In this document: positions 10,994 through 26,824 of the stretch, in pieces | Position numbering within the stretch: the stretch's first letter is position 1 | How the letters are laid out: each line of letters starts with the position of its first letter | NCBI RefSeq assembly: GCF_000008645.1 | Contig: NC_000916.1 | Coordinates: forward strand, 420,001 to 452,000 | DNA: 32,000 bases | Source: Methanothermobacter thermautotrophicus str. Delta H | GTDB lineage: Archaea > Methanobacteriota > Methanobacteria > Methanobacteriales > Methanothermobacteraceae | Reading direction: 5' to 3' | The notes under the pieces: model-generated | The model's input: only the letters and a program-made list of their open reading frames with translations | Database searches by the model: none | Told to the model about the DNA's origin: nothing | Position numbers and translations under genes: made by a program

Positions 10994-13462
10994 CTATGAG
11001 CCGTTCATGGCCCTCTCATGGAAGTAGGCCGCCATCTCAACCTCCCCCTGCCTTCTGAGTATTTCCCCCATCAGGTAGCATGCCCCTGGATTTCCAGGGT
11101 CCCTCTCAAGGACCTCATGTAGCCTTAACTTGGCATCCAGGAGGTTACCCTCACTGCAGAGCTCCTCCACCCCTGCGAGGACATCCCCATCAACCTCACT
11201 GGCCTCCCTGACCTCACCCGAGGTCTGCTCCATGAGGTACTCCAGTATCTTCACCGTCGCATCCCTGTGGAGCGGCGAGTTCTCGTTGCCGCACTTTGGT
11301 GAGTAGATACATGATGGGCAGCCCTCGGTGCAGCTGCAGGATGATACAAGTTCAAGGGTCGATGCCAGGAGGTCCCCGAAGACCTCAACACCCTTCTCTG
11401 CAAGTCCTATTCCGCCCTCGAAGCCGTCATATATGAATATAGTGGCCTCCTGTGTGTCCGGGTGCATGGGTGTGGATATGCCCCCGATATCACTCCTGTC
11501 GCAGAGGACGTGGAGGGGGAAGAGGGATATGAGGGCGTCTTCAGCCCCATGTATTCCCCCGTGGAAGGCATCCCCACCGTACATCTCCTCAACCTCATCC
11601 CTGAGGGAGTCTGGGATGGTGAACCAGAGGGCCCTGGTCCTGAACCTGAGTGGTGGGAGGTCAAGTTCCCTTTTACCCAGGACCCTGCTGTAGCTCATTA
11701 CCCTGTATCCTGTGTAGTGCTCGGTCACCTCAACCTCGCCGAAGTTAACCTCAAGGTCCCCCAGTCTCCGCTGCCGGAGCTTCCTTATAATCCTGAGCTC
11801 GGTGTCCCTGAGGACACTGGTATGGTACTCAACGTCCCTCCTGTCAACGATTATCCTCCTGCCTTCAAGGTCAAAGTCCCGTACGGTGTAGGTGTTGCCG
11901 TGGTTCATGAGCACCGCACCCTCATGGGCCTCCCTGTAGGCCTGGGAGCGGCTCATGGTCTCAAGGACGCGGCCCTCACAGATGACCGTGAAGGTGTCCT
12001 GGGAGACGTCATCGAGGCCGTACCTGAACTGGGGGTCGCCGCTGCAGGTGAGACCATCTGGTGCCAGTTCAAGCTCCCCATCAGCAAGCATCTCCCCTGC
12101 AACACCCACGCTGAAGTCGTATTCCAGGAAGTCATCCAGGATTAAGGGCAGCTCGGAGGCCGCGCATGCAGTCTGGTTCCTCAGTATCAGCCTGTTCTGG
12201 AGGTCTATTATTGCATTCTCATGGGGCCTCTCAAAGATGAATGAGGGGTTCTTCATGATGTACTGGTCCAGGGGGTTCTCGAAGGCCACCAGGATCACCA
12301 TGGAGTCCTTCAGGTTCCTCCCGGCCCTCCCGGCCTGCTGCCAGGTCGATATCATGGTCCCGGGGTAACCAGATATTATGACGGCGTCCAGTGAACCTAT
12401 GTCTATGCCGAGCTCCAGGGCATTGGTTGCAGTGACACCCAGGAGCCTCCCCTCCTTGAGGTCGGCCTCTATCCTCCGCCTCTGCTCTGCAAGGTAACCT
12501 GCCCTGTAGGACGTCACCCTGTCAACGAGTTTGCGGTTCTCCCTATCAAGCTGCTCCCTCGTCCAGCGGGTTACAAGTTCAGCCATCTTCCTTGAGATGG
12601 TGAAGCAGAGGGTCTGCACGCCCCTCAGAACAAGGTATGAGAGTATGGCTGAGGTTTCAAGGTGCGCTGAGGGGTCACCCCTCTTCCTGTAGGGGTTGTA
12701 GAGTATGAAGTGCTTCGGACCTGAGGGTGAAGTGTCATCCGAGATCACCCTGAAGTCAAGGCCTGTGAGTTTACGTGAAAACTCGGCAGGGTTTGCCAGG
12801 GTTGCGCTTGCAAGGACGAACTGGGGCTCTGAGCCGTAGTACCTGCAGATCCTCCGCAGCCTCCTCAGGAGGAGGGCCACGTTGGAGCCGAAAACCCCCC
12901 TGTACTGGTGGGCCTCATCAATCACCACGTAGCGCAGGTTACTGTAGAACCGCCTCCACTGGTGATGCCAGGGGAGTATGCGGTGGAGCTGGTGGGGGTT
13001 GGTGAGTATCACCCTGGAGTTCTCTCTTATCCAGGGCCTCCGCTCCCTGGGTGTGTCACCATCATAGGTTGACGGGTTGAGTTTGAGTCCGAGCTCTGAC
13101 TCCAGCTCCTCCAGGACCCCGAGCTGGTCCCTTGAGAGGGCCTTGACAGGGTATATGTAGAGGGCCGTTGCATCAGGGTTGAGGGTGAGGGTCTCCATGA
13201 TGGGGAGATTGAAGGCCAGTGTCTTCCCGGAGGCCGTGGGGGTTGTTATGAGGATGTTCATCCCCTCCCTTATGGCGTCGAGGGCCTCCCTCTGGTGGCG
13301 GTAAAGCCTTATACCCCCTGCATCCAGGTAGTCCCGGATGTTATCAGGGATGTCTGTGGAGTCAGAGTACCTTGCTTCACGGCCAGGGATTGTCTCCACG
13401 TGTTCTATGGCATCCCTGAACCGCCAGTCCCTCCTGAACCTCTCAAGAACCCTTTTAACCAT
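10994..13462 (-). CDS. mrfA: DEAD/DEAH-box SF2 helicase with C-terminal DUF1998 (MrfA zinc-binding) domain and TPR-like tail (YprA/MrfA-like)
   Basis: Helicase motifs present are TPTASGKTLAF (I), VVIDEAHQYRG (II), SATL (III) and TNALELGIDIG...QQAGRAGR (V/VI). The DUF1998 cysteine cluster is CSCTEGCPSCIYSPKCGNENSPLHR. The C-terminus LLDAKLRLHEVLERDPGNPGACYLMGEILRRQGEVEMAAYFHERA is TPR-like. Confidence 0.85.
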   Translation of the reverse strand: MVKRVLERFRRDWRFRDAIEHVETIPGREARYSDSTDIPDNIRDYLDAGGIRLYRHQREALDAIREGMNILITTPTASGKTLAFNLPIMETLTLNPDATALYIYPVKALSRDQLGVLEELESELGLKLNPSTYDGDTPRERRPWIRENSRVILTNPHQLHRILPWHHQWRRFYSNLRYVVIDEAHQYRGVFGSNVALLLRRLRRICRYYGSEPQFVLASATLANPAEFSRKLTGLDFRVISDDTSPSGPKHFILYNPYRKRGDPSAHLETSAILSYLVLRGVQTLCFTISRKMAELVTRWTREQLDRENRKLVDRVTSYRAGYLAEQRRRIEADLKEGRLLGVTATNALELGIDIGSLDAVIISGYPGTMISTWQQAGRAGRNLKDSMVILVAFENPLDQYIMKNPSFIFERPHENAIIDLQNRLILRNQTACAASELPLILDDFLEYDFSVGVAGEMLADGELELAPDGLTCSGDPQFRYGLDDVSQDTFTVICEGRVLETMSRSQAYREAHEGAVLMNHGNTYTVRDFDLEGRRIIVDRRDVEYHTSVLRDTELRIIRKLRQRRLGDLEVNFGEVEVTEHYTGYRVMSYSRVLGKRELDLPPLRFRTRALWFTIPDSLRDEVEEMYGGDAFHGGIHGAEDALISLFPLHVLCDRSDIGGISTPMHPDTQEATIFIYDGFEGGIGLAEKGVEVFGDLLASTLELVSSCSCTEGCPSCIYSPKCGNENSPLHRDATVKILEYLMEQTSGEVREASEVDGDVLAGVEELCSEGNLLDAKLRLHEVLERDPGNPGACYLMGEILRRQGEVEMAAYFHERAMNGS

Positions 13463-14150: not shown

Positions 14151-14201
14151 ACTGAGGGATACCCTCAGGGAGATGATCAGGAAGAGATGAGGTGTGCATT
14201 C

Positions 14202-14708
14202 ATGAAGAAGTATATTTTAATTGTGATGCTTGCCCTGATGGTTGCGGGCTGCGTCTCTGAGGATGGTAACTACACATACAATGAGGGTGTCCAGGACAGC
14301 AATGTGGACAATCCTGTTAATGATTCATGGACCAGCGACTCCCAGGATAAGGTTAACGATACTGCTGAGAAAAAATCCAGTTATGAGGCATCAGGCAGCT
14401 GTTACCATGTGGTTGACGGTGACACCATAGACGTTGAGGGCGTCGGGAGGATACGCCTGGTAGGGGTTAACACCCCTGAACGTGGACAGCCAGGCTACAG
14501 GGAGGCGAAGGACTTCGTGAAGTCCATGTGCCTTGGAAGAACAGTCCAGCTGGACATCGATGATGCTAAAAGACACGACAGGTATGGGAGGGTCCTTGCA
14601 GTTGTCTACGTCGACGGTGTCAACCTCAACAGGGAGCTTCTCAGGCGCGGCTATGCCGAGGTAATGTACATACCACCCTCTGAGTTTAACCCATATGGGT
14701 GGACATAA
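14202..14708 (+). CDS. Secreted/lipoprotein staphylococcal-nuclease (SNase/thermonuclease) homologue
   Basis: MKKYILIVMLALMVAGC is a signal peptide with a lipobox-like Cys. The SNase core reads VVDGDTIDV...IRLVGVNTPE...EAKDFV...DRYGRVLAVVYVDGVNLNRELLRRGYA. A GAGGTG SD lies 8 nt upstream of ATG 14202, which I prefer over 14187. Confidence 0.8.
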   Translation: MKKYILIVMLALMVAGCVSEDGNYTYNEGVQDSNVDNPVNDSWTSDSQDKVNDTAEKKSSYEASGSCYHVVDGDTIDVEGVGRIRLVGVNTPERGQPGYREAKDFVKSMCLGRTVQLDIDDAKRHDRYGRVLAVVYVDGVNLNRELLRRGYAEVMYIPPSEFNPYGWT

Positions 14709-14709
14709 C

Positions 14710-14740
14710 AAAAAATAATTTAATGTGGTTAAGATAAATC
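14710..14740 (+). promoter_or_regulatory. Candidate promoter region (A/T-rich boxes AATAATTTAA and TTAAGATAAAT) for the methyltransferase operon
   Basis: These are the only A/T-rich TATA-like elements in the 65-nt gap. They lie 35-60 nt upstream of ATG 14774, and AGAGG lies 11 nt before the ATG. Confidence 0.3.
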
Positions 14741-14773
14741 ATCAATGACAGGTAACCAGAGGCAGGTTCGGCG

Positions 14774-16015
14774 ATGTCAGATGTTGTGTTGATTGACATA
14801 TTTGCAGGTGCGGGGGGGCTTACTGAAGGTTTCCTTCGGAGTGATTATACATTCGTTTCACATATTGAGATGGACAGGGATGCGATTCAGACACTGGAGA
14901 CAAGGGGACTCTATCATCACCTGCAGAGCGATGGTGACCCCGAGGATTACACCGAATACGTTAATGGTGAGATAGGACGTGAAGAACTATTCAGAAGATA
15001 TCCTGACTTTGACAGTGAACTGTACATGAACCTTGAACTCACAGAGGAAAACGTGGACAGGGTCATAGAGACCATCAGGTCAAAGATGAATGATATGGGG
15101 ACAGTTTCTGTTGATGGCATAATAGGTGGGCCTCCATGTCAGGCGTACTCATATGCTGGCAGATCCCGGAAGAACATGGAAAAGGACAGGAGAAACTACC
15201 TCTACCTCCTGTACATTAAATTCCTGAAAGAATTCCAGCCGGAATTCTTTGTATTCGAGAACGTCCCCGGGATGAAGTCAGCGCAAAGGGGCCACATACT
15301 ATCTGATTTCCAGAGGAAGGTAACAGACCTGGAATATAAACTTGACTTTGAAGTGCGTGATGCATATAACTTCGGGGTCCCTCAGAGGAGAAGGAGGATC
15401 ATAGTCATCGGCCACCGCATGGAAGATAAAAGGATACAGTTTGATGAGGAGAGGTATGCCGGTACAGTGAATGACATCCTATGTGATCTGCCCGCCCTTG
15501 AACCCGGCCAGGGCACAGACGGGCCCCAGGAATATAGATCCAGACCATCACGCCTCCTGAATGAGATGGGTATAAGGACAGAGAATGATATTCTCCGACA
15601 TCACCAGGCGCGAAGACACAACCCGCGGGACCGCGAAATTTACAGGAGAACAATTGACGCATGGAACTCAGAGAGGAGAAGATTAAAATATACAGAACTT
15701 CCACCGGAACTCAGGACACACAGGAACACCAGGAGCTTCCTTGACCGTTACAAGGTGGTTGCAGGGGACCTCCCCTATTCCCATACCATTGTCGCGCATA
15801 TATCAAAGGATGGACACTACTACATCCACCCCGACAGAGAACAGGCCCGTTCTCTGACCGTAAGGGAAGCTGCAAGGATCCAGTCCTTCCCGGATAACTA
15901 CATATTTGAAGGATCCATGACCTCAAAGTACCGGCAGATAGGAAACGCCGTGCCTCCACTAATGTCTGAGAAGATTGCCCGCAAACTTTATGAAATCTAC
16001 AGGGGGGACCTCTGA
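14774..16015 (+). CDS. drmMII: DNA (cytosine-5)-methyltransferase (Dcm family; DrmMII-like position)
   Basis: All core motifs are present: DIFAGAGGLTEGF (I), GGPPCQAYS (IV, 15125-15151), ENVPGM (VI), QRRRRIIVIG (VIII), RSLTVREAARIQSFPDNY (IX) and QIGNAVPP (X). A variable target-recognition region of roughly 120-130 aa lies between VIII and IX. Confidence 0.92.
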   Translation: MSDVVLIDIFAGAGGLTEGFLRSDYTFVSHIEMDRDAIQTLETRGLYHHLQSDGDPEDYTEYVNGEIGREELFRRYPDFDSELYMNLELTEENVDRVIETIRSKMNDMGTVSVDGIIGGPPCQAYSYAGRSRKNMEKDRRNYLYLLYIKFLKEFQPEFFVFENVPGMKSAQRGHILSDFQRKVTDLEYKLDFEVRDAYNFGVPQRRRRIIVIGHRMEDKRIQFDEERYAGTVNDILCDLPALEPGQGTDGPQEYRSRPSRLLNEMGIRTENDILRHHQARRHNPRDREIYRRTIDAWNSERRRLKYTELPPELRTHRNTRSFLDRYKVVAGDLPYSHTIVAHISKDGHYYIHPDREQARSLTVREAARIQSFPDNYIFEGSMTSKYRQIGNAVPPLMSEKIARKLYEIYRGDL

Positions 16016-16137
16016 TTTCTGAAAAGGATCTGCTGCTTGATATTCATACCAGAATCTGCGAATGGGGAAAAAAGAATTTAAGGAAATTTCCCTGGCGCGA
16101 AAGAAGAGATGACTATGGAATTCTGCTGGCTGAAATA

Positions 16138-16665
16138 ATGCTTCACAGAACACGCGCAGAACAGGTGCTTGAAATTTATGAAAACTTTGTTGAAAAATTT
16201 CCTGATTTTAAATCGGTGTGTGAAGCGGGACAGGAAACAATAGAAAAAGAAATGGAGTCCCTTGGTCTCAGATGGAGAGCCAGAAATCTCCATAAACTCG
16301 CATGTGAGATTGAAAGCAGACACGGGGGGGCTGTTCCAAAAAACAAAAATGATCTCCTTGAACTTCCAGGCATTGGGAACTACATTTCCTCGGCGTTTTT
16401 ATGTTTTTCCAAAAATATTCCAGAACCCCTTCTGGACACGAACACCGTCAGAATCATTGGTAGATTGTTTGATCTTGAGATCAGTGATTCATCCCGCAGA
16501 AAAAAGGATTTTGAAACAGTAATGAGGAAAATTCTTGAATTTGGTGACTGCAGACACCTTTCACTATCGATGATCGATTTCGGAGAGGCTGTGTGCAGAG
16601 CTAGCGATCCCCTCTGCCATGAATGTCCCCTGAAACTATCATGCAACTTTTACAGGAGATGTTAG
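16138..16665 (+). CDS. mig: HhH-GPD superfamily DNA glycosylase with [4Fe-4S] loop (EndoIII/MutY/Mig.Mth-like). Coordinates start at the first canonical start codon; the conserved frame is open from 15994.
   Basis: LLELPGIGNYISSAF is the HhH-GPD hairpin, LLDTNTVRIIGR matches vDtN..R with the catalytic Asp, and CRASDPLCHECPLKLSC is the Cx6Cx2Cx5C cluster. Upstream, in the same frame with no ATG/GTG/TTG, the sequence reads ..LISEKDLLLDIHTRICEWGKKNLRKFPWRERRDDYGILLAEIM-LHRTRAEQV. This is the conserved N-terminal helix region of this family. Confidence 0.85.
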   Translation: MLHRTRAEQVLEIYENFVEKFPDFKSVCEAGQETIEKEMESLGLRWRARNLHKLACEIESRHGGAVPKNKNDLLELPGIGNYISSAFLCFSKNIPEPLLDTNTVRIIGRLFDLEISDSSRRKKDFETVMRKILEFGDCRHLSLSMIDFGEAVCRASDPLCHECPLKLSCNFYRRC

Positions 16666-16666
16666 A

Positions 16667-19600
16667 ATGAGAAAAACAATGATTGAAGAGGTAATAAAGG
16701 AGGTGCTGGGACCACGAAGTGGCCCTGAGGAATCCATTAAAGGGGACCCCTACGATGAGTATATAACCGGTGTTATCATCCCCGCCGGATGGAGTCCCGC
16801 CATAGAAATGGGTGCTGCTGACCCCGATTCTGAAAATGTGAATACAGACATTGTTTCATCAGGAGAGGATGATGATTCTGATTATGAAAGCTCTGTATTA
16901 TCAGGACCATTCACACGGCCCAGATCATTTGGTATTTCATTCATGGCACCCGCCGGTGCAAAGGAAATGGATATCTGTGTCACGTGGGGTCGATACACCA
17001 GATCCGATGATGAGAAAATGTGGAAGAGAAAAGGCCATTTCTGCATCAAAAAATTTTCACTTGAGGAGGATAACACCCGTGAATGCATCTACCGGGAAGA
17101 TGATGGCAGCATAACGATCAATGTTATGATCAGGGAGGACGGAAACCGTAAAAACGTTAGGGTGATTCTTGTAAATGAACTTAAGGTCGCTCGAAGTGCT
17201 TACAGACCTGAAACAGCCTCCTGCATTTTTCAGCCATCCATTCGCATTAACGTTGAAGACCGTCCGGAAACTTCAGATGCCCCTGATGACTACAGAGATG
17301 AGATGAATTTCATTTACAGAAACAGAAAGATTGATGTGATGGGAATTCAATGCTCTGCAGTATCAAAATCATGTGAATACTCACATAACCTCAATGAGTC
17401 TATTTTATGGCCTGATGGTCTTAATCTGGCTGAAAAATTCCCTGAAATTGAAAATTTCAGAACTCCTGACTTCAGAACAGAATTTGTACCTCTCTATCCC
17501 AGTCCGATGCCATCCTTTGATGTGGAAGGGGTTGATGAACTTTCTGCAGAGAAACTTTCAGAGGCATGGAATTCCAGTTCAATTTCAGAGATAGTGAACC
17601 CCCTCATAGATGCATATGAAAGGTGGATAGAATGCAATAAAGGAATCCAGAAGTCAATGGATGGCAAAAATAAAAAATTTGCATCCGGTATAATCAAAAA
17701 ACAGGAAGAAGCGCTGAAAAGACTTAAAAATGGATTGGAAATCCTCATGGATAATGAGAAAGCAAGGCTCGCATTCTGTTTTGCAAACAGGGTCATATCA
17801 CTTCAGCATCAGTGGAGCCGGCAGGGTGATGATTTCCTCTGGAGACCATTCCAGCTCGCATTTTTTCTCATGAACATCGAACCCATATTCAATCCTGAAT
17901 CAGAATATCGTGATGTTCTGGATCTCCTCTGGATACCAACCGGGGGTGGGAAAACAGAGGCCTATCTTGCCATAATAGCATTTACGATGTCTCTTCGCCG
18001 TCTTAAAGGTTCCATCGGCTCAGAAAATATCCAGAGATGCTATGGAACAGCAGTTATATCAAGATACACCCTGCGCCTCCTCACCGTGCAGCAGTTCAGA
18101 AGGACCCTGAGAATGATAACAGCGGCGGAGTATCTGAGAGTTTTCATATGCGACAGCGGTCTCAGGGGATGGAGACCCTCCAACTGTGATATAAAAGAGG
18201 ACTGGTTATATGGTTCTGTGAGGTTCTCCGCTGGCCTATGGGTAGGTGGCGCCGTGTCTCCACTTCATCTGAGAATAAATAAAGGGGCCATTGACATCAT
18301 GACCTCCTCCGGGGATGGTGGGAATGAAAGTGAGCCGGCCCAGGTCATCAGGTGCCCCGCATGCAATTCATGGTTGAGTCTGCCGGATTCTTCAGAGAGC
18401 TCCCTGCCTGCCCATGATAACACAATAATCACCGTGGTCCAGAAAAAGAAGACAGACCTCAGCTTTGAGCCTTCAGAACTCAAAAAAATGTTTCCTGAAA
18501 TCAGAGAAATCAGAACTTGCAGGGACAACCTCAGGGAGAACCATGAAACACTCATCATAAAATTTGATGAAAGAGATATGGACATCCCCCGGATATCAGA
18601 GATCATGAAAGAACTTGAGAATCACTTTGAGTTCTCATCACTGAGCTGGAGAAGACCCGGCTACTTTGGAAGCTCCTTTGATAAAGGGAGGAGGAAAAAG
18701 AAATATTCAGACTTTGAAATATGGTGTCCCAATCCGGACTGTCCTCTGAATAAGGATGTTGACTGGGCGGAGGGTGTTCCCTCAGATGAGGAATCGGAGT
18801 TTCCCGATGGAAATGCCAGAAGAAAGTTTGAGAGTCCTTTTATAGAAAACAGAAGAATTCCTGTTCCTGCCTACACTGTTGATGAACAGGTATACTCAAG
18901 GTGCCCCACAGTTATAATAAGCACTGCTGATAAGATTGCGAGACTCTCCTTTGAGCCAAAGGCAGCAGCCATCTTCGGAAATGTTGATAAATTCAACATA
19001 TTTTATGGTTATCACAGGGATGGGCTATATCCCATAAACACGACAAAGAGTAGTGAAGCCCATGACACTGACGTGGAAGGGTTTCTGCCCCCTGAACTGA
19101 TAATACAGGACGAACTCCACCTCCTTGACGGTCCCCTCGGAAGCATCTTTGGAATCTATGAGGCATCCGTGGAATCTCTCATATGGCGTGGAGGGCTGAG
19201 ACCAAAATATCTTGCATCCACGGCAACGATAAACAACGCACATGATCAGGTCAGACTTCTCTTTGGAAGGGATCTGTTCCAGTTCCCGCCACACGGCCTT
19301 GAAATAGCAGACTCATTTTTTGTTAAGGAAGAGGATCCCGGTGATGCATGGGATGAACGGATTAGCGGAAGAATTTACATGGGAATCGCCGCACCCGGAA
19401 GAGGTCCGATAACTCCCCAGATAAGGCTATGGTCCCGTGTTCTCAAAACATCTGCGGAAAACACAGGCAACGAAGCCATCAGATATTACTGGACCGTTGT
19501 CGGATACTATAATTCCCTGAGGGAACTTGGAGGTGGGATTGCATTTTACAGGGAGGACGTTGTTGAGAGGTTAAAGGAGATTTCCGTGGATGATCCTCGT

Positions 19601-20374
19601 GATATAGATCCCGACCCGCTGGAACTTTCAAGCAGGATTGATTCAACTGCCCTGCCCCTTGTACTTGACAGAATAGAACGCGACGGAGAACAGCCGGGAG
19701 TCCCGGCATATGATGCCATTTTCACAACATCAATGTTCGGTACCGGTGTGGATGTGCCTCACCTTTCACTCATGATTGTCAGCGGTCAGCCAAAGACAAC
19801 AGGATCCTACATTCAGGCCACAGGGAGGATCGGGCGAAGACGGGGAGGTCTTGTCCTGACATTTCTGAATGCTTCAAGACCCCGGGACATGAACCACTAT
19901 GAAATGTTCATGAGGTATCATGCGAGAATTCATGAAAGCGTTGAATCTGTTTCAGTTTCACCCTATTCCGATGGGGCATTAAATAGAGCCCTTGGACCAG
20001 CGACCGTCGCATTTCTCAGAAACATGCCACTGGCCCGTGTTAACTGGACAGAAGAAGATGGTAAGGTCATATTATCCGGAGAATCCTCTGAAGATATTCA
20101 TTATCTGCAGGAATCCCTCACAAACCGGCTTGATAAAATATTTAACAGAAAAGAGGATGTGGAAATAATTGAAAATTTCCTTGAAGAGTGCATCAAAAAA
20201 TGGAGATCTGTTGCGGAAGAAGTCAATGAACTCCGATTTTCAGAGTACATAACCAGACAACACAACGTGGTCCTTGGCACTCCATCGCATGAATATAAAA
20301 ACCTCAAGACAGTTTTCAGAAATGCTCCAAATTCACTGAGGGATATTGAGGAAACAACAGGTTTCAGGGTGTAA
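16667..20374 (+). CDS. drmA: DISARM DrmA-like large SF2 helicase (1235 aa)
   Basis: Helicase motifs are WIPTGGGKTEAYL (motif I, 17936-17959), IIQDELHLL (DExH, 19109-19120), STAT, and FGTGVDVPHLSLMIVSGQPKTTGSYIQATGRIGRR (V/VI). There is a long N-terminal region and split zinc-ribbon-like pairs CPAC (~18350) and CPNPDC (~18725). AGGAGA lies 8 nt upstream, 1 nt separates it from the glycosylase stop, and a DUF1998 gene follows immediately. Confidence 0.8.
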   Translation: MRKTMIEEVIKEVLGPRSGPEESIKGDPYDEYITGVIIPAGWSPAIEMGAADPDSENVNTDIVSSGEDDDSDYESSVLSGPFTRPRSFGISFMAPAGAKEMDICVTWGRYTRSDDEKMWKRKGHFCIKKFSLEEDNTRECIYREDDGSITINVMIREDGNRKNVRVILVNELKVARSAYRPETASCIFQPSIRINVEDRPETSDAPDDYRDEMNFIYRNRKIDVMGIQCSAVSKSCEYSHNLNESILWPDGLNLAEKFPEIENFRTPDFRTEFVPLYPSPMPSFDVEGVDELSAEKLSEAWNSSSISEIVNPLIDAYERWIECNKGIQKSMDGKNKKFASGIIKKQEEALKRLKNGLEILMDNEKARLAFCFANRVISLQHQWSRQGDDFLWRPFQLAFFLMNIEPIFNPESEYRDVLDLLWIPTGGGKTEAYLAIIAFTMSLRRLKGSIGSENIQRCYGTAVISRYTLRLLTVQQFRRTLRMITAAEYLRVFICDSGLRGWRPSNCDIKEDWLYGSVRFSAGLWVGGAVSPLHLRINKGAIDIMTSSGDGGNESEPAQVIRCPACNSWLSLPDSSESSLPAHDNTIITVVQKKKTDLSFEPSELKKMFPEIREIRTCRDNLRENHETLIIKFDERDMDIPRISEIMKELENHFEFSSLSWRRPGYFGSSFDKGRRKKKYSDFEIWCPNPDCPLNKDVDWAEGVPSDEESEFPDGNARRKFESPFIENRRIPVPAYTVDEQVYSRCPTVIISTADKIARLSFEPKAAAIFGNVDKFNIFYGYHRDGLYPINTTKSSEAHDTDVEGFLPPELIIQDELHLLDGPLGSIFGIYEASVESLIWRGGLRPKYLASTATINNAHDQVRLLFGRDLFQFPPHGLEIADSFFVKEEDPGDAWDERISGRIYMGIAAPGRGPITPQIRLWSRVLKTSAENTGNEAIRYYWTVVGYYNSLRELGGGIAFYREDVVERLKEISVDDPRDIDPDPLELSSRIDSTALPLVLDRIERDGEQPGVPAYDAIFTTSMFGTGVDVPHLSLMIVSGQPKTTGSYIQATGRIGRRRGGLVLTFLNASRPRDMNHYEMFMRYHARIHESVESVSVSPYSDGALNRALGPATVAFLRNMPLARVNWTEEDGKVILSGESSEDIHYLQESLTNRLDKIFNRKEDVEIIENFLEECIKKWRSVAEEVNELRFSEYITRQHNVVLGTPSHEYKNLKTVFRNAPNSLRDIEETTGFRV

Positions 20375-20376
20375 AT

Positions 20377-22113
20377 ATGATGAATAACGTGCAGCATCTT
20401 AGAAGATCCCAGTTCATATTCACCTATGGACCTGGAGCCATACTGGAGGGAAAGAACGGGCCCGTGATGATCCCTTCACTCAACGACGGCCTGGGAAACT
20501 ATTTTGGAATAGAATATCTTGAGAAGTTTGAGATTAAGGATAGCAGGCTTTCAGAGTTTCTCCGGAAAAATAAAGAGATTGATGGAACCATACGGCTATT
20601 TTCACTGCCCACCAATGCCGCCCTCTCCCTTGATGAAAACCGTCACATCTACAATACATGGCGGTTTCCCCGCTGGAAAATATGCTATGGAAGAACAGAA
20701 GGGGGACACCAGAATCCCGTCCTTTATTATGAACGTGAAGGGAAAGGCTGCCCCATATGCGGGTCAAGGAATGCCTCAGCCACCCGATTTGTGGCTGCGT
20801 GTCCTGACGGACATCTTGATGATCTGCCATGGAAATATCTCGTTCACAGTAAAGAAACCGGGTGCAATCCAGAATACTTTCACTGGAAAATTGAGGGACC
20901 ATCAATTGCGGATATAATAATTAAATGTCCGGAATGTGGACAATCATCTTCCATGAGATATATTTACAGAAAAAAATTCCGCTGCACAGGCAGACTTCCT
21001 GAAAGATCAGGGCTCCGTTCAAAGGAATCATGTGAACTTGAAATGAAGATTCTTCAGAGACAGTCAACCTCCCTCAGAATACCCGTAACACTGACCCTTC
21101 TGAAAATTCCCTATAAAACCAAACTGGATGAAATACTGGAGAACGATCCAGAATTCAGGGGTAACCTGCGCGGTATTATAAACCATGCAAATAAAGAAAA
21201 TCTGCTTTCAGACGTTAAGCAGAACAAAAGAAAATATTATGACACCGTTAAAGGGAGTATTGAGGACATGGGTTACAGAAGATTCTGTGAACATGTAATG
21301 GGATTCAATAGCAGGATGATAGCAGATCCCCTTGGAGATGAATTCCGGGCCCTCAGAGAAATGCGAACATCTGAAACACTATCAGTGGGAGAGCCTGTGA
21401 AATTTTCTGTTGATTCTCAGATTACCCTCAAAATTGTTCCTGTTGAAAAATTGAAGCTTACAACTGCTCAGATTGGATACTACAGGAGCCCTTATCTTAA
21501 AAAGGACGAAAATTCAGAGATAATTCCGTCAAATATTGTGAGTACAGGTGAAAGGGAAGCAATTTCCGAGTCATGGTGGTATCCTGCGTTTGAGAGTATG
21601 GGAGAGGGTCTGTTCATAACAGCGGATAGAATAGCCCCGGAATCTTCATCCTTAAATGCGCTGCAGGAGTGGGATGAAAGAAAATTGATTCATGACGAAA
21701 TTCTGAGACAGAACACACCTGTGAGTCCAGAATTTGTGTGGTGGCATACACTTTCACATTCCATTATACAGGCCCTCTCGTTATATGCAGGCTATTCATC
21801 ACCCTCAATAAGAGAAAGAATTTACACAGACTCCGGAGGCGCCGGTGGCATTCTCCTTTATTCATCATCGATTGGAGATGATTGCAGTATGGGAGGTCTC
21901 TCTGGATGTGCTTCAGAATCAAAATTTAAGGAGATATGGAAAATAGCAATGAATAATATTGAATTCTGCTCCAACGATCCGATATGTCATCAGAATCGGA
22001 TTTCAGATGGAAATTACAACGGATCCGCATGCCACCGCTGCCTGATGCTATCAGAGACATCATGTGAACACAGGAACAGGTGGCTGGATAGGCATGCTGT
22101 TCTTGGAGATTGA
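20377..22113 (+). CDS. drmB: DISARM DrmB-like DUF1998 protein (578 aa)
   Basis: The N-terminus RRSQFIFTYGPGAILEG is typical of DUF1998 proteins. Internal cysteine pairs are CPICG...CPDGH and CPECG. The C-terminal DUF1998 cluster is CSNDPICHQ...GSACHRCLMLSETSCEHRNRWLDR (21967-22071). It starts 2 nt after the DrmA-like stop. Confidence 0.8.
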   Translation: MMNNVQHLRRSQFIFTYGPGAILEGKNGPVMIPSLNDGLGNYFGIEYLEKFEIKDSRLSEFLRKNKEIDGTIRLFSLPTNAALSLDENRHIYNTWRFPRWKICYGRTEGGHQNPVLYYEREGKGCPICGSRNASATRFVAACPDGHLDDLPWKYLVHSKETGCNPEYFHWKIEGPSIADIIIKCPECGQSSSMRYIYRKKFRCTGRLPERSGLRSKESCELEMKILQRQSTSLRIPVTLTLLKIPYKTKLDEILENDPEFRGNLRGIINHANKENLLSDVKQNKRKYYDTVKGSIEDMGYRRFCEHVMGFNSRMIADPLGDEFRALREMRTSETLSVGEPVKFSVDSQITLKIVPVEKLKLTTAQIGYYRSPYLKKDENSEIIPSNIVSTGEREAISESWWYPAFESMGEGLFITADRIAPESSSLNALQEWDERKLIHDEILRQNTPVSPEFVWWHTLSHSIIQALSLYAGYSSPSIRERIYTDSGGAGGILLYSSSIGDDCSMGGLSGCASESKFKEIWKIAMNNIEFCSNDPICHQNRISDGNYNGSACHRCLMLSETSCEHRNRWLDRHAVLGD

Positions 22114-22146
22114 GGATCTGAACTGATCAGAAATGGTGGTGAATAG

Positions 22147-25062
22147 ATGGAGCCTGCATATTACTATCATGATTATCCCGTGTGTCCAAACTGCAAAGAA
22201 CCTGTGATCACAGGAGCTCCCCTGCTGATTGAGGATGATGGAACATTTAGGTGTTCCTCCTGCGACGCCTTTTTCAGTCCTGCGGTGCATCTTCCGGAAA
22301 ATGAAGGGGTACATGAATTCCTGACGAAAAATCTGAAAGAACCTCCCAGTGAGGAACTGCCCCTTATCTGGCCCATAAAAAATAACGTGATTGAAAAATC
22401 ATATCTCAGCTGGCTTCCCAATATCAGTGAAGGAAAGTACCTGATAACATGGCCATGGAGGAATATCAGGTTCCTCCCAGTTCTAATCTGCGAGTGCCTC
22501 AGGGTTAAAGGAGATGCCAAGATCGTTGTGATCGGTGAGATCAATACCGGTGAAAGTAAAAATGAGCTGGGTTTTCCTGACCCCTTTTCAGCGCTCGGAA
22601 GCCTCCAATACATTGAAGATATGTCTAAGATGGATTCAGGTGATCTCAGAAATCTTAGAAGATTATTAAAAATAGACAGAAAAAATGTATTCAAAAAGAA
22701 AAAAAAGATCCATTACAGAATAAAGGATTCAAAGAACAGACATACGACAGAAATATCAGTATACAGACCAGAAATGACCATTAGAAAATGCATAAACCGC
22801 ATTTTAAAGTACTATAAGAATTTATATGGAATGAATGCTGTAAGGAGTATAACCCAGAAGGATGGGAAGGGTGATAAAAGAATTAAAAAACTGAAGGATG
22901 AAGGAATAATCGCCATAAGCATTGAAGAAAGGGAAGAATGGACGGGCAAAAAACTCAATTTTCCGGTATCTGACCTTTTTCATGTAATACTGAATTATGA
23001 TAACTTAACACGTTTTAAAGATCACTTTAAGTATGATTGCATAACAGATGTCAGGGATACAGATACTTCAGACAGTTCCGTGGTTTTTATCTCACAGACC
23101 CTGGAACCAGAAAAACTCTTTGGCATCGTTGAAGAATGCAACCCAGATATTGTATTTTTCACAGATTCAGATTATTTCGTCAATGAAAGGCTTTTCAACG
23201 GTAGGAGGTGGCAAAAATTCAGAGAATTTCTTCGTTCAACAGAGTGTACTGTTCTGATGTTTTCACTCAGACCCGACAGCAGACACCTGTACAGAGACCT
23301 TCAGGACAGCTTCACATGGCACACCTGGGATTGCATACCCATTCTTGACATACTGACCGGAGATGAAGATCATTCAAGACCATCCCCATTTTCATCATCA
23401 TTCAGTGAAATATCTGTCCCGGGGATTAATGCTGAGATAGAGTACATCCATCTCGAGGAGATTGATAGAATAGAAGAAATCTCCGAAAAGATCCTGAAAA
23501 TAGATAACGGTAAAAATGTGCGCCGTTATCTAAAATATCTTCCTCAGACACCTCTCAAGCTCCGCGGCCCACACAATTATTCAAATGGTGGCTGGGTCAT
23601 TGATAACATTCTGAATCAGATCCTGGATACACCAATCTTTGACGAGGTGAAAAACACATTCGAAGAGGTTTATTCAATTTCATCGGGCCCCCAGAGAAAC
23701 CCCATACTGAACTCCGTGAAAGAAATCATTGAAGCGGAACTTTCAGAGGATGACAGAAAATCTATATTCATAGCTTTAAGATCATCGCGGGAAACAAAGA
23801 GCCTGAAAAAAACTTTTGAAATTGATGAAGAGAATCCTGATGTGCTTGATGCTGTTGATATATGCACCTGGAATGATCTCCCCACCCACCATGGGGAAGG
23901 TCCCTCAGTGGTAATAGCAACTTCATATCCACCCATCGGATACTCTCTGAATGATACAGATATAGATAAATTTTACTTCATAGGAGGATCAACAGCCATT
24001 GAAAAAATAAAATCAGTAGTTAACAACAGAATCACAGAGCAGATTACAAAACCTCTTCACATTCCATCAAGAAAAGAAAGAGCGCCCGAACTTCTCTTTG
24101 AGATTACAGGAAAAATTCATGTTCCTGAAACCGTTAAAGAAGATATCCTAGAGTTTGAAAGATCCATTGAATCAGGATCATATTCAAAGATATCGAATTC
24201 GTATGGGAAAACCTATAAAAAGCGTGCGAGAACAATAAGAGCAGGCACTGAATGTGTGCTTGTGATCAATGAAATGAATTGTGGAATGTTCATACCATCC
24301 CACAGGCTTCTTTTCTTTAAGGATGAAACTGTCGACAGGATCGAACACATCAGAGCCGGTGATAAACCTGAAAATCTTCAGAACAGGACTCTTTTACTGG
24401 ATGAACATGGATTCTATACATCATTCAAAGTCCTTTTCACCAGATTCATGATAGAAATTGCCCCAAACCTGAAAATAAAACGTTCCTACTACACCTGGAA
24501 CGGCTTCAAAGAACTTGTGGATGACTCATATGAATGGTTAAGGAACATCCGAAATGCCATGAAGAAGCTTATGGATGCCCGTGACTGGAATGAAAACAGG
24601 GCAAAGGATTACCTATCAGAATATCTTGTTAAATATGATCTCAACGCCAGAAACCCCGAGTATATAAGAGATCACTGGCTGTCGGATCCAGATATCATAC
24701 TGACGTCGGAGGGTCATGTTCCAGTTTTTGATGTCGAGCACCCCAAGGGAATTTCAGATGTTGAAAAAATATACAGGGCTCTGGATGAACTATTTCCTGA
24801 AATGTGTCTTGATGATGAAAAAGCAAGAAGATCATACATTGCATCACGGACTCTTCAGAAACTGAGAAGAAAATTTTTAACTGATGAAAAGCAATCGCTG
24901 CATCAACGGTACCACAGATTCCATGACGAGCTCTGGAAAGAAATAAATTACGTCCTTAAACGTTCCGATAAATTTAAAATAAAGGATGCCAGAATTGTTA
25001 AGGTCAAGATAGATTCGCCATCCATGAAAATACTTCAAGATTATAAGAGGTATATAACATGA
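22147..25062 (+). CDS. Large uncharacterised protein (971 aa) with N-terminal zinc ribbon; last gene of the DISARM-like operon
   Basis: The intact 971-aa ORF has a GGTGGTGA SD 5 nt upstream and starts 33 nt after the DrmB-like stop. CPNC-x20-CSSC forms a zinc ribbon at residues ~13-40. Two alpha/beta-looking regions follow (KIVVIGEI, VVFISQT, DIVFFTDSDY, TVLMFS; later SIFIALRS, VVIATSYP, FYFIGGS), with no Walker A and no HKD motif. The C-terminus is helical and K/R/E-rich. I recognise no family. Confidence 0.75.
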   Translation: MEPAYYYHDYPVCPNCKEPVITGAPLLIEDDGTFRCSSCDAFFSPAVHLPENEGVHEFLTKNLKEPPSEELPLIWPIKNNVIEKSYLSWLPNISEGKYLITWPWRNIRFLPVLICECLRVKGDAKIVVIGEINTGESKNELGFPDPFSALGSLQYIEDMSKMDSGDLRNLRRLLKIDRKNVFKKKKKIHYRIKDSKNRHTTEISVYRPEMTIRKCINRILKYYKNLYGMNAVRSITQKDGKGDKRIKKLKDEGIIAISIEEREEWTGKKLNFPVSDLFHVILNYDNLTRFKDHFKYDCITDVRDTDTSDSSVVFISQTLEPEKLFGIVEECNPDIVFFTDSDYFVNERLFNGRRWQKFREFLRSTECTVLMFSLRPDSRHLYRDLQDSFTWHTWDCIPILDILTGDEDHSRPSPFSSSFSEISVPGINAEIEYIHLEEIDRIEEISEKILKIDNGKNVRRYLKYLPQTPLKLRGPHNYSNGGWVIDNILNQILDTPIFDEVKNTFEEVYSISSGPQRNPILNSVKEIIEAELSEDDRKSIFIALRSSRETKSLKKTFEIDEENPDVLDAVDICTWNDLPTHHGEGPSVVIATSYPPIGYSLNDTDIDKFYFIGGSTAIEKIKSVVNNRITEQITKPLHIPSRKERAPELLFEITGKIHVPETVKEDILEFERSIESGSYSKISNSYGKTYKKRARTIRAGTECVLVINEMNCGMFIPSHRLLFFKDETVDRIEHIRAGDKPENLQNRTLLLDEHGFYTSFKVLFTRFMIEIAPNLKIKRSYYTWNGFKELVDDSYEWLRNIRNAMKKLMDARDWNENRAKDYLSEYLVKYDLNARNPEYIRDHWLSDPDIILTSEGHVPVFDVEHPKGISDVEKIYRALDELFPEMCLDDEKARRSYIASRTLQKLRRKFLTDEKQSLHQRYHRFHDELWKEINYVLKRSDKFKIKDARIVKVKIDSPSMKILQDYKRYIT

Positions 25063-25072
25063 GAGTACGAAG

Positions 25073-26824
25073 TCACTTCCACCCCTCAATGATCCTCTGT
25101 TTCAGTATGCGGAACTCCTCATCCTCAAGCAACCTTCCATTCTTTACTATATGCCCCCTGAGGGTCCTCAGAATGAATGATACCACAGCATGACCTATCA
25201 TGTCACCCTTAAGACCATATGGGGGCATGGAGAGGAATTTCATCTCATCCACCGGATCAAAGTCGCCCCTTGAAAATTTTTCAACTGTCACATCCACCAT
25301 GGTCTTAACTGGGTGGTAGACATCTGGAAGGAGGTTAAGGTTCTCATCAACTATCCAGTCACCCCCGGGGCCCCTGAGGATGTGGGCGATGAACCATAAT
25401 AATCCACTCCCTGTTTTCTTTTTGAACTCTTCAAGATTCTCAGAGAAGAATATTTCAAAGACCTTCGGGTAATTTCCAGTCTTCCAGAGGTTTCTGTTTC
25501 CACGTATCACAGGGAGGTTCTCAGGGCCAGAGTGGAAGATCCTCCTTGAAAGCTCACTGTTTATCAGCTCGCTGAGACCATAAAGCCTATCCCCCCTCCC
25601 TGATTCACCATTGAGGTACCACTGGAAACCTGATGCCATCAGATCCCCGACCCACGCCGACACCATCCTCCCTGCAGCATCACTGTGCTCAGGGTCATCT
25701 GAACTCAGCGCAAGGGTCATGTGGTCGAGGAGGATCTCATAGTCCTCAGCAGCCATTGAGGCGTCAGGGAATACCATGAGAACGTTATCAGGTCCTTGGA
25801 GGGTCGGGGCGGGCATCCCCTCATGGGTTCTAAGTATGAGGGCCACAAGGATATCTGATCCTCTGCCATGGAAGTCATCAGCTGAGACCTCAGGATTCAG
25901 TGTGGAAGCATACCCTATTCGGAGCTCCCTGAGTGAGGAACCCCTCAGGAACCCCTCAAGGTCATCCCTTCTTTCACCAAAAAGTTTATCAGGTTCATTT
26001 ATTATTAATTCTCCCAGTCTATCCCTGAATTCCAGATCTTCAGAGCCCAAGTGAGGCCTTTCATCGATCTTAACCCTGAATGAGGAGATATAGCTGTCAA
26101 GTATCTCATCCGAGGATGTATCATCAAGATGGATGACACCGTCGTCCAGGGTGATTGATGGGGACTCCTGCAGTTTAACTGCGATTGATTCCATGGTGGT
26201 CCCGAAAAGTCTGAGGGGGCCCCCCGGGCATTCATCACCGTAAAGGTATTCCAGTCCAATCTCCCGGGAACCGATATCCTCTGCAAGCCTGTAGAGGGAG
26301 TAGGCCACCACATGGTGGTCCAGGTCATCCAGATGTATCCTTTTAACCAATGAGCTCCGTCCCCTCTTCCTCATGGATACGATGGCACCCAGACGCGAGT
26401 TATCAAACATGTTGATGAGGGCTGAGACAGGATTTTCCACTGTGGAGTCCTTAATATCACCGAGATCCGGCCTTATGGCCTCCATGATCCCCTTCTTATC
26501 GAGGTACTCATCGAATCCCACATTGTCACAGAAGAGATTAACGATGGGGGATCCATGGTACATGCTGACCCAGAGGATCTGCCATGCTGCCACGGGTTCC
26601 ATGAAGTAGAGGTCCCTGATCCTGCCAAAGAGTGGGGTTACTTTTTCCTTAACAATGAGGCCTGCATCGGCCAGCCAGGACCCGACGGCCTTCACCTGTA
26701 CCGGACCCAGATTGTTCCTTTCATGCCATCTTTCCTCATGGGTGAAGATTAATGGCATCCATTCATCCCTGAGGCCAAAGGTGGAGTACCTGTCAATTCC
26801 ATTTAACTTTCTGGCTCTCATCAT
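25073..26824 (-). CDS. Uncharacterised protein (583 aa), convergent with the DISARM-like operon and divergent from the McrB-like gene
   Basis: The ORF is intact, with no NTPase or nuclease motif recognised by eye. The N-terminal ~200 aa (STFGLRDEWM...LGPVQVKAVGSWLADAGLIV...WQILWVSMYH...) loosely resemble the DUF4007 pattern. That resemblance is unverified. Confidence 0.7.
   Translation of the reverse strand: MMRARKLNGIDRYSTFGLRDEWMPLIFTHEERWHERNNLGPVQVKAVGSWLADAGLIVKEKVTPLFGRIRDLYFMEPVAAWQILWVSMYHGSPIVNLFCDNVGFDEYLDKKGIMEAIRPDLGDIKDSTVENPVSALINMFDNSRLGAIVSMRKRGRSSLVKRIHLDDLDHHVVAYSLYRLAEDIGSREIGLEYLYGDECPGGPLRLFGTTMESIAVKLQESPSITLDDGVIHLDDTSSDEILDSYISSFRVKIDERPHLGSEDLEFRDRLGELIINEPDKLFGERRDDLEGFLRGSSLRELRIGYASTLNPEVSADDFHGRGSDILVALILRTHEGMPAPTLQGPDNVLMVFPDASMAAEDYEILLDHMTLALSSDDPEHSDAAGRMVSAWVGDLMASGFQWYLNGESGRGDRLYGLSELINSELSRRIFHSGPENLPVIRGNRNLWKTGNYPKVFEIFFSENLEEFKKKTGSGLLWFIAHILRGPGGDWIVDENLNLLPDVYHPVKTMVDVTVEKFSRGDFDPVDEMKFLSMPPYGLKGDMIGHAVVSFILRTLRGHIVKNGRLLEDEEFRILKQRIIEGWK

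Follow-up and report, generated by a model that had tools for sequence, protein, structure and literature searches.

The gene for a Mig/MutY-type DNA glycosylase in a defence operon of Methanothermobacter thermautotrophicus deltaH has no ATG, GTG or TTG codon at which its full-length product could begin, and the same is true throughout the genus. The gene lies directly behind a C5 cytosine DNA methyltransferase (MTase) gene in the 32,000-nucleotide (nt) stretch analysed here, called the window; all coordinates are those of the window. Public annotation starts the glycosylase at an internal ATG and yields a truncated protein of 175 amino acids (aa), the exact match to which (AAB85002.1 / WP_010876135.1) identified the window as M. 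thermautotrophicus deltaH. We think it likely that the gene instead encodes a separate protein of 216-217 aa, begun at AUU 16015 (AUC in some species) or at CUG 16012 behind a run of G residues serving as Shine-Dalgarno (SD) element, and coupled to translation of the MTase. The elements of the junction are as follows.

14774-16015, plus strand: DrmMII-type C5 cytosine DNA methyltransferase, 413 aa, about 48.6 kDa, with its stop codon TGA at 16013-16015.
15990-15992, plus strand: ATG inside the MTase tail (tATGaaa), out of the glycosylase frame in deltaH and with no SD element upstream.
16002-16007, plus strand: GGGGGG (G6) run inside the MTase coding tail, read as the SD element of the glycosylase gene.
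16012-16665, plus strand: full-length Mig/MutY-type HhH-GPD DNA glycosylase, 216-217 aa, about 25.3 kDa (PF00730, PADLOC PDLC03398).
16012-16014, plus strand: CTG, candidate near-cognate start, overlapping the MTase stop as C-TGA and invariant in 7 of 7 junction variants.
16015-16017, plus strand: ATT (ATC in the KEPCO2/K4/DP clade), candidate near-cognate start, 6-7 nt past the G-run in every variant.
16015-16137, plus strand: the 41 codons upstream of the annotated start, for which substitution rates were estimated.
16138-16140, plus strand: ATG of the public annotation, with a 175-aa, 20.2-kDa product beginning MLHRT… (AAB85002.1 / WP_010876135.1).

The glycosylase frame is open from 15994, straight after a TGA at 15991-15993, comprises 223 aa and reads NLQGGPLISEKDLLLDIHTRICEWGKKNLRKFPWRERRDDYGILLAEIMLHRT. 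The open frame overlaps the end of the MTase gene, TAC AGG GGG GAC CTC TGA, by 22 nt, and the overlap measured from the candidate start codons is 1-4 nt. The first ATG, GTG or TTG in the frame is ATG 16138. An initial annotation of the sequence had given the same limits for the open frame, the MTase stop and the G6 run, together with the absence of a canonical start before 16138, and all of these coordinates were reproduced. A stretch of 47 codons with no internal ATG, GTG or TTG is by itself only mildly unusual (about 9%, by a hand estimate). Nor is a G6 run remarkable in itself; such runs are under-represented in the window, with 19 occurrences against 44.6 +/- 9.4 in dinucleotide-preserving shuffles. 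Two G7 runs also lie within coding sequence, one near the 5′ end of the MTase gene (14812-14818) and one in the glycosylase gene (16324-16330, …RHGGAV…). The non-random part of the junction is the combination of an absent start at the N-terminus of a gene under purifying selection with a G5-G7 run held at a fixed distance from CTG-ATT/ATC in seven diverged variants.

Judged from the pattern of substitutions, the codons ahead of ATG 16138 are translated as part of the glycosylase. The ratio of nonsynonymous to synonymous substitution rates (dN/dS) over the 41 codons from 16015 to 16137 was 0.12-0.19, compared with 0.11-0.12 for the rest of the gene, when deltaH was set against the KEPCO2/K4/L007 lineages (dS about 0.8-1.0). 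Read in either of the remaining frames, the same interval gave dN/dS of at least 0.87 and contained stop codons. No insertions or deletions (indels) were found in the 41 codons, and several were found in the approximately 12 nt around the G-run. Homologues of 217-235 aa span 91-96% of the 223-aa open frame.

The family and fold of the glycosylase bear on the same segment. The protein matched PF00730 at 1.5e-11, above the cut-off, and the REBASE-derived PADLOC model PDLC03398 ('nicking/V-type') at 2e-37. It matched the thymine-DNA mismatch glycosylase Mig.MthI (PDB 1KEA) at 1.7e-37 and MutY at 2e-39, both alignments beginning at query residue 19-20. The features of HhH-GPD enzymes are present: an LPGIG hairpin, and a catalytic Asp (D142, in LLDTNTVR) that was invariant in two homologue alignments. 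The [4Fe-4S] loop follows the pattern C-X6-C-X2-C-X5-C (CRASDPLCHECPLKLSC), with C195, C205 and C211 invariant and C202 nearly so (at least 90%). The MutY equivalog models scored below their cut-off (168.5 against 286.5 bits), and the protein has no MutT-like C-terminal domain, being 217 aa long against 350-370 for MutY. T:G specificity is predicted from the homology to Mig.MthI.

An AlphaFold (AF2) model of the 217-aa form had a pLDDT of 95.8, with helices at residues 4-22, 27-30 and 34-44. Foldseek superposed it on 1KEA with TM scores of 0.90/0.90 and a root-mean-square deviation of 1.6 Å over 210 columns, at 32% identity. In the model, a start at 16138, where Met is residue 43, would strip off helices 4-22 and 27-30 and most of helix 34-44. 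The complete two-domain fold, including the N-terminal helices, is thus obtained only in the 216-217-aa reading; the 175-aa form is without these helices. The initial annotation had claimed that the open frame encodes a conserved N-terminal HhH-GPD segment that a start at 16138 would delete, and the homologue coverage, the alignments with 1KEA and MutY and the helices lost from the model all bear this out. As the upstream codons are under the same selection as the rest of the gene and supply helices of a Mig.MthI-like fold, the 175/182-aa database models are truncated and the gene is not a pseudogene. ATG 16138 is probably not the functional start.

To compare junctions, orthologues were gathered by exact-protein look-ups and by a metagenome scan with alignment, giving 29 Methanothermobacter assemblies with seven junction variants. 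A scan of contigs with the glycosylase as single query returned two distant bacterial loci only. The following variants were represented.

deltaH type, 8 assemblies: ACA-G6-ACCT-CTG-ATT.
Z-245 type, 7 assemblies: ACAT-G6-CTT-CTG-ATT.
L093, 1 assembly: ACA-G5-ACTC-CTG-ATT.
KEPCO2/L007, 5 assemblies: TTAA-G6-TCT-CTG-ATC.
K4 and two metagenomes, 4 assemblies: TTAAA-G6-TCT-CTG-ATC.
Strain DP, 1 assembly: TTAA-G7-TCT-CTG-ATC.

No canonical start was found before MLHRT in any of the 29 assemblies or seven variants. All variants have in common 5-7 consecutive G, with CTG beginning 3-4 nt and ATT/ATC 6-7 nt after them, and the sequence CTG-AT(T/C)-TCT-GAA-AA; the residues LISEK are kept in all lineages. 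The frame of the glycosylase relative to that of the MTase is not constant: it is −1 in five variants, among them deltaH, Z-245-type, K4 and DP, and +1 in two (KEPCO2/L007 and L093). The flip arises from indels around the G-run, even inside one clade whose glycosylases are at least 90% identical. These indels are confined to about 12 nt and alter only the tail of the MTase (RGDL*, MGGF*, RGVSDL*, KGGL*), as expected if decoding of the glycosylase begins at CTG/ATT.

The ATG at 15990 is in frame with the glycosylase in L093, where the run is G5; it is also in frame in KEPCO2 but is there followed by TAA, and in DP it is replaced by GTG. The L093 sequence (JGI Ga0451664_016680, 1-40) reads MKSTGGLLISEK… from this ATG and was called as a protein of 231 aa (P0122). 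The contig starts exactly at ATG 15990, and the 231-aa call is therefore an edge call and not evidence that the start is used.

The G-run was then considered as an SD element. We take the 3′ end of the archaeal 16S rRNA, the anti-SD, to be GAUCACCUCCU. The duplex of the G-run region with this sequence has a predicted energy of −10.0 kcal/mol, which places it among the strongest 4.3% of positions in the window; of the 16 annotated starts, 11 have weaker pairing. Ahead of ATG 16138 the pairing was −3.6 kcal/mol, which is the background level. When spacings were aligned by hand, a value of 13 was obtained for DrmA, DrmB, the open reading frame (ORF) at 22147 and the homologues in loci L011, L015, L016 and L018. 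The aligned spacing in every Methanothermobacter variant is 13-14 to ATT/ATC and 10-11 to CTG, and L093 (G5 plus 7 nt) and KEPCO2 (G6 plus 6 nt) both hold the distance at 13. A near-cognate codon is conserved at the homologous start position, with an SD element at functional spacing and no canonical alternative.

Outside the genus, about 75 homologous loci (glycosylases 38-57% identical) have an ATG, GTG or TTG candidate near the expected N-terminus. Where a C5 MTase gene lies upstream, the start of the glycosylase usually abuts or overlaps its stop, as TAG|ATG, TAATG/TGATG, ATGA or TTGA; the two genes overlap by 1, 4, 8 or 11 nt or lie a few nt apart. The initiator Met of the closest homologues (P0013 and P0020; loci L014-L016) aligns without gaps to CTG 16012 of deltaH. 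ATT 16015 shares its A with the MTase stop, giving TGATT where homologues have TGATG or TAATG, and a nucleotide alignment matched TAATG of L011 to TGATT of deltaH. Alignment of orthologous loci had been proposed in the initial annotation for seeing whether they are fused, carry a start codon or conserve the G-run. The run proved to be kept across the genus and fused loci were not found; a canonical start is absent within the genus but present in the approximately 75 loci outside it.

These observations suggest the following course of events. The gene would originally have begun with an ATG or TTG that overlapped or abutted the MTase stop, an arrangement still seen in relatives, and the Methanothermobacter ancestor would have lost this start by a change of ATGA to CTGA or of TGATG to TGATT. 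Near-cognate AUU/AUC at 16015 or CUG at 16012, both of which overlap the MTase stop (C-UGA-UU), may then have taken over. The G-run at 16002-16007, which ends 7 nt before AUU and 4 nt before CUG, would act as the SD element. Initiation of the glycosylase would probably be fed, through translational coupling, by ribosomes that finish the MTase at UGA 16013-15. With a weak start coupled to the MTase, a T:G/U:G glycosylase, which is potentially mutagenic, could be made in small amounts and in proportion to the enzyme that makes its substrate, the presumed source of which is 5-methylcytosine (m5C), deaminating quickly at 65 °C. The predicted products begin (M)ISEKDLLLDIHTR or (M)SEKDLLLDIHTR, with masses of 25.3 and 25.2 kDa, and ISEKDLLLDIHTR…GILLAEI lies upstream of the annotated start. 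AUU/AUC is favoured by the SD spacing, and CUG by its alignment with the Met of homologues and by its invariance; we cannot choose between them. Which codon is used, whether initiation depends on translation of the MTase, the specificity for T:G and the argument from dosage are matters of inference.

Near-cognate initiation accounts for the purifying selection upstream of ATG 16138, the conserved spacing from run to codon, the free variation of the sequence between the MTase tail and CTG (indels that change the frame included) and the lack of fused family members. Profiling of translation initiation sites in Haloferax volcanii found that about 30% of putative alternative initiation sites were near-cognate codons (PMC7261190), which makes such initiation plausible in Archaea. 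The initial annotation had brought in CTG 16012 and ATT 16015 only as an outcome that would refute its fusion of the two genes; as an explanation of the start they are in fact the best supported.

Several points weigh against initiation at these codons. Proteomic or ribosome-profiling data for this gene were sought and none were found, so that use of AUU, AUC or CUG as a start in Methanothermobacter is inferred and not demonstrated. The CUG and AUU/AUC candidates cannot be separated, and the change from ATT to ATC between clades resembles a synonymous change in a sense codon. The assumed anti-SD GAUCACCUCCU was corroborated only by the SD motifs of neighbouring genes. A conserved G-run is, moreover, predicted by slippage too.

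Slippage was the leading proposal of the initial annotation, which had read the overlap as a possible −1 frameshift. Ribosomal or transcriptional slippage on the G-run would yield an MTase-glycosylase fusion of 630 aa and 73.8 kDa, and the −1 reading was reproduced as a hypothetical product (…KLYEIYRGGPLISEKDLLLDIH / …KLYEIYRGGPLISEK…, with junction peptide EIYRGGPLISEK). It is consistent with a G5-G7 run being kept just before the MTase stop in every lineage, with the two frames never being identical, so that a shift would always be needed, and with the capacity of a G-run for re-pairing of tRNA-Gly either way; the Z-245-type 0-frame heptamer, G GGG GGC, formally fits X XXY YYZ. However, the shift needed is −1 in some variants and +1 in others and flips within one clade, and the heptamer of deltaH, G GGG GAC, departs from the slippery pattern at the A site and does not permit tandem slippage. 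A run of G6 is also short for transcriptional slippage. Folding of 73-81 nt after or around the run from deltaH, Z-245-type and KEPCO2 sequences revealed no stable or conserved structure (minimum free energy z-scores of +0.92, −0.23, +1.00 and +0.12), the folds differing between lineages, and Rfam gave no match at the junction; a frameshift-stimulating structure and a known RNA family were rejected on these grounds. None of 80 related loci was fused in frame, and the best 150 representatives of 1.8 billion clusters were all 162-497 aa long. The top matches to a synthetic 630-aa fusion query were all stand-alone MTases, 406-497 aa long, which cover 63-66% of the query. The −1 fusion is not supported, lacking a conserved frame relation, a slippery heptamer in deltaH, a stimulatory structure and fused relatives, and we consider a fusion by slippage improbable. 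The same low probability applies to a version in which the G5-G7 run is a direction-agnostic recoding site, shifting +1 or −1 by strain through tRNA-Gly or RNA polymerase, such that some ribosomes yield a methylate-and-repair fusion beside free MTase.

Other ways of starting the glycosylase were weighed against initiation at AUU/AUC 16015 or CUG 16012. Several further near-cognate codons are in frame, and initiation might occur at CTG 16030 or 16033 or at ATT 16042; alternatively, an internal archaeal promoter might supply a transcript that is leaderless or has a short leader. An A/T-rich sequence, TTTATGAAAT, lies at 15987-15996 and includes a TATA-like TTTATGAA at 15987-15994; it is 20-28 nt upstream of the candidate starts and resembles an archaeal TATA box. 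Read from sequence, the box could mark such a promoter, at roughly the right distance for a transcript start near 16012-16018. It is, however, also constrained by MTase coding (L-Y-E-I) and differs in KEPCO2. In the KEPCO2 clade, CTG 16030 is replaced by CGG and CTG 16033 by CTC. ATT 16042 has no SD-like element ahead of it, and LISEK is conserved in all lineages. Initiation at these codons or on such a transcript, neither of which is marked by conserved features, is unlikely, to about the same degree as slippage. It is still less probable that only the 175-aa product is made from ATG 16138, or that the gene is a decaying remnant with a relic upstream frame. In favour of this view, ATG 16138 comes first among the canonical starts of the frame, occurs in all lineages and is used by every public annotation. 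Against it, the upstream codons are under equal purifying selection with no stop or indel at this divergence, a start at 16138 drops three helices from a compact fold that superposes on Mig.MthI along its whole length, the SD pairing before 16138 is at background, and the catalytic and cluster residues are intact. The short form and the pseudogene were rejected on dN/dS and fold.

ATG 15990 would be the start if the length of the G-run set the frame, either as a phase-variable switch with G5 as the ON state or by a +1 shift in G6 strains. Run lengths of G5, G6 and G7 do occur between strains, and the ATG is in frame in L093. It is out of frame in deltaH, Z-245-type and K4, in KEPCO2/L007 it meets TAA after three codons, and DP has GTG in its place; no SD element lies upstream, the L093 call is at a contig edge, and G6 is identical in 8 deltaH-type and 7 Z-245-type assemblies, with no sign of switching. 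This start was rejected for the frame, the TAA and the GTG, and has very little probability in our estimate. Finally, homopolymers are error-prone on some sequencing platforms, and an assembly or sequencing error could hide an ordinary gene. One and the same junction was found in 8 independent deltaH-type assemblies, complete genomes and several metagenomes among them, the Z-245-type junction was identical in 7, and every other multi-assembly variant was also identical across its assemblies. No single-base change in the run gives a canonical in-frame start except by way of ATG 15990, which the other lineages exclude. Independent assemblies thus agree on the two main junctions, and sequencing error was rejected as next to impossible.

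By its gene content, the locus of the glycosylase is a class 2 DISARM operon that looks complete. Co-oriented, tightly packed genes run from 14187 to 25062 on the plus strand in the order SNase-like gene, DrmMII, glycosylase, DrmA, DrmB and a 971-aa ORF. The MTase matched Pfam PF00145 at 1e-60, PADLOC DrmMII at 9.2e-162 and NCBIfam dcm at 9e-51. The two genes after the glycosylase are listed below.

16667-20374, plus strand: DrmA, 1235 aa, the next gene after the glycosylase (PADLOC DrmA, E = 0, 1493 bits).
20377-22113, plus strand: DrmB, 578 aa, DUF1998/MZB (PADLOC DrmB, 9.5e-171; PF09369 in orthologous loci).

The trio DrmA, DrmB and DrmMII is therefore present in one locus with full-length scores against the PADLOC models, and the position of DrmMII upstream of full-length DrmA and DrmB identifies the operon as class 2 DISARM. 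Class 2 DISARM is described, after Ofir et al. 2018 and in PMC10273834 and PMC9142583, as consisting of DrmMII, DrmA, DrmB and DrmE with or without DrmC. Unlike the systems so described, the operon has a repair glycosylase gene between drmMII and drmA. The 971-aa ORF at 22147-25062 had no PADLOC match even at E = 10, no NCBIfam match at the default E = 0.001 and no DrmE match; it is placed where a further component is expected and is a candidate divergent DrmE. No PLD/DrmC gene was detected among the window ORFs tested.

Some further features of the locus were observed. In deltaH the glycosylase gene ends seven residues early through a change of CAG to TAG at 16663-16665 (…FYRRC*); the C-terminus in all other lineages runs on as QNEKNND* or HDETDND*, overlapping the start of DrmA by about 20 nt. 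DrmA of strain DP (L107, CP113501.1, 2527-4549) is called as two pieces of 586 and 632 aa, and in two KEPCO2-type assemblies (L094 and L096) it is 882-883 aa long and not 1242 aa. Given these split and short calls, DISARM may be inactivated in some strains. A gene upstream of the operon and divergent from it (10994-13462, minus strand) is kept in all Methanothermobacter loci; its product is a DEAD/Helicase_C protein of 822 aa that ends in an MZB (DUF1998-type) domain. On the other side, the N-terminal 218 aa of a 582-aa ORF (25073-26824, minus strand) matched BrxP at 4e-42, and the C-terminal part of this ORF matched BrxC/PglY at 2e-23. From these matches the ORF looks like a fused or fragmentary BREX remnant beside DISARM, as in a defence island.

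The association of glycosylase and DISARM extends beyond the genus. DrmA lies directly downstream of the MTase-glycosylase pair in at least 26 of 61 homologous metagenomic loci (L010, L017-L026, L031-L033, L039 and others), and on this gene order a Mig-type glycosylase seems to be a common accessory of m5C-based DISARM. A literature search on DISARM in Methanothermobacter and on DISARM-linked glycosylases found no paper describing a glycosylase as a DISARM accessory.

The arrangement can be compared with several known systems. In E. coli the dcm and vsr genes reportedly overlap and are coupled. The deltaH pair is like dcm-vsr in that a gene for repair of the T:G mismatches produced by m5C deamination comes after an m5C MTase gene in one operon and has a frame that overlaps the 3′ end of the MTase gene, with the repair role assigned here from the homology to Mig.MthI. 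In dcm-vsr the repair gene is reportedly expressed at a low level that depends on translation of the MTase. By analogy, a weak start tied to the MTase would follow the same logic. The pair differs from dcm-vsr in that the enzyme is an HhH-GPD iron-sulphur glycosylase and not a Vsr endonuclease, which acts in very-short-patch repair (PMC2715241), the start overlap is only 1-4 nt, the start is non-canonical and the operon is an archaeal DISARM operon. The initial annotation had also likened the overlap to dcm/vsr, and as an analogy this is supported: an m5C MTase gene is followed by a gene of T:G-repair type, with stop and start overlapping, and close placement of stop and start, by overlap or across a short gap, is the norm in the approximately 75 homologous loci.

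Mig.MthI itself is encoded on plasmid pFV1 of M. thermautotrophicus THF and is linked to the GGCC m5C system MthTI (PDB 1KEA; PMC2926615). The deltaH enzyme shares with it the genus, the fold, the length class (about 217-221 aa), the lack of a MutT-like C-terminal domain and the linkage to an m5C MTase. It is only 32% identical, however, and is chromosomal, lies in DISARM and not in a plasmid type II restriction-modification system, has a T:G activity that is predicted, and has no canonical start.

A conserved near-cognate start, AUU, is used by bacterial infC. The glycosylase gene resembles genes of the infC type in having a near-cognate codon conserved where homologues have AUG, a good SD element and a dosage that plausibly needs to be low; it differs in having no known autoregulatory logic, in the archaeal initiation machinery and in that initiation at the codon is a prediction. 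Bacterial dnaX is an example of programmed −1 ribosomal frameshifting. Like sites of that type, the junction has a homopolymer shortly before the 0-frame stop and an open −1 frame that encodes a real domain; unlike them, it has no valid tandem heptamer in deltaH, no stimulator and a direction of shift that is not conserved among close relatives. A homopolymer before a stop and an open −1 frame are thus insufficient to call a programmed frameshift, and here it was the junctions of orthologues that settled the question.

For annotation, the consequence is that every public Methanothermobacter genome, including that of deltaH, carries a truncated 175/182-aa model of a gene whose likely product is 216-217 aa. 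A gene held under purifying selection with no AUG, GUG or UUG start across a genus (dS about 1) is a testable candidate for sustained near-cognate initiation and for stop-start coupling in an archaeon, and genetic tools are now available, a shuttle vector for strain deltaH among them (bioRxiv 10.1101/2021.04.20.440605). An MTase gene with a coupled gene for deamination repair is a known arrangement; what is unusual here is that the start codon is non-canonical genus-wide in an archaeon. An m5C-based DISARM system in an organism growing at 65 °C has its own Mig-type glycosylase, and many DISARM loci of uncultured archaea and bacteria contain the same module. The presence of the glycosylase in DISARM suggests that the system carries with it the means to offset the mutagenic cost of m5C.

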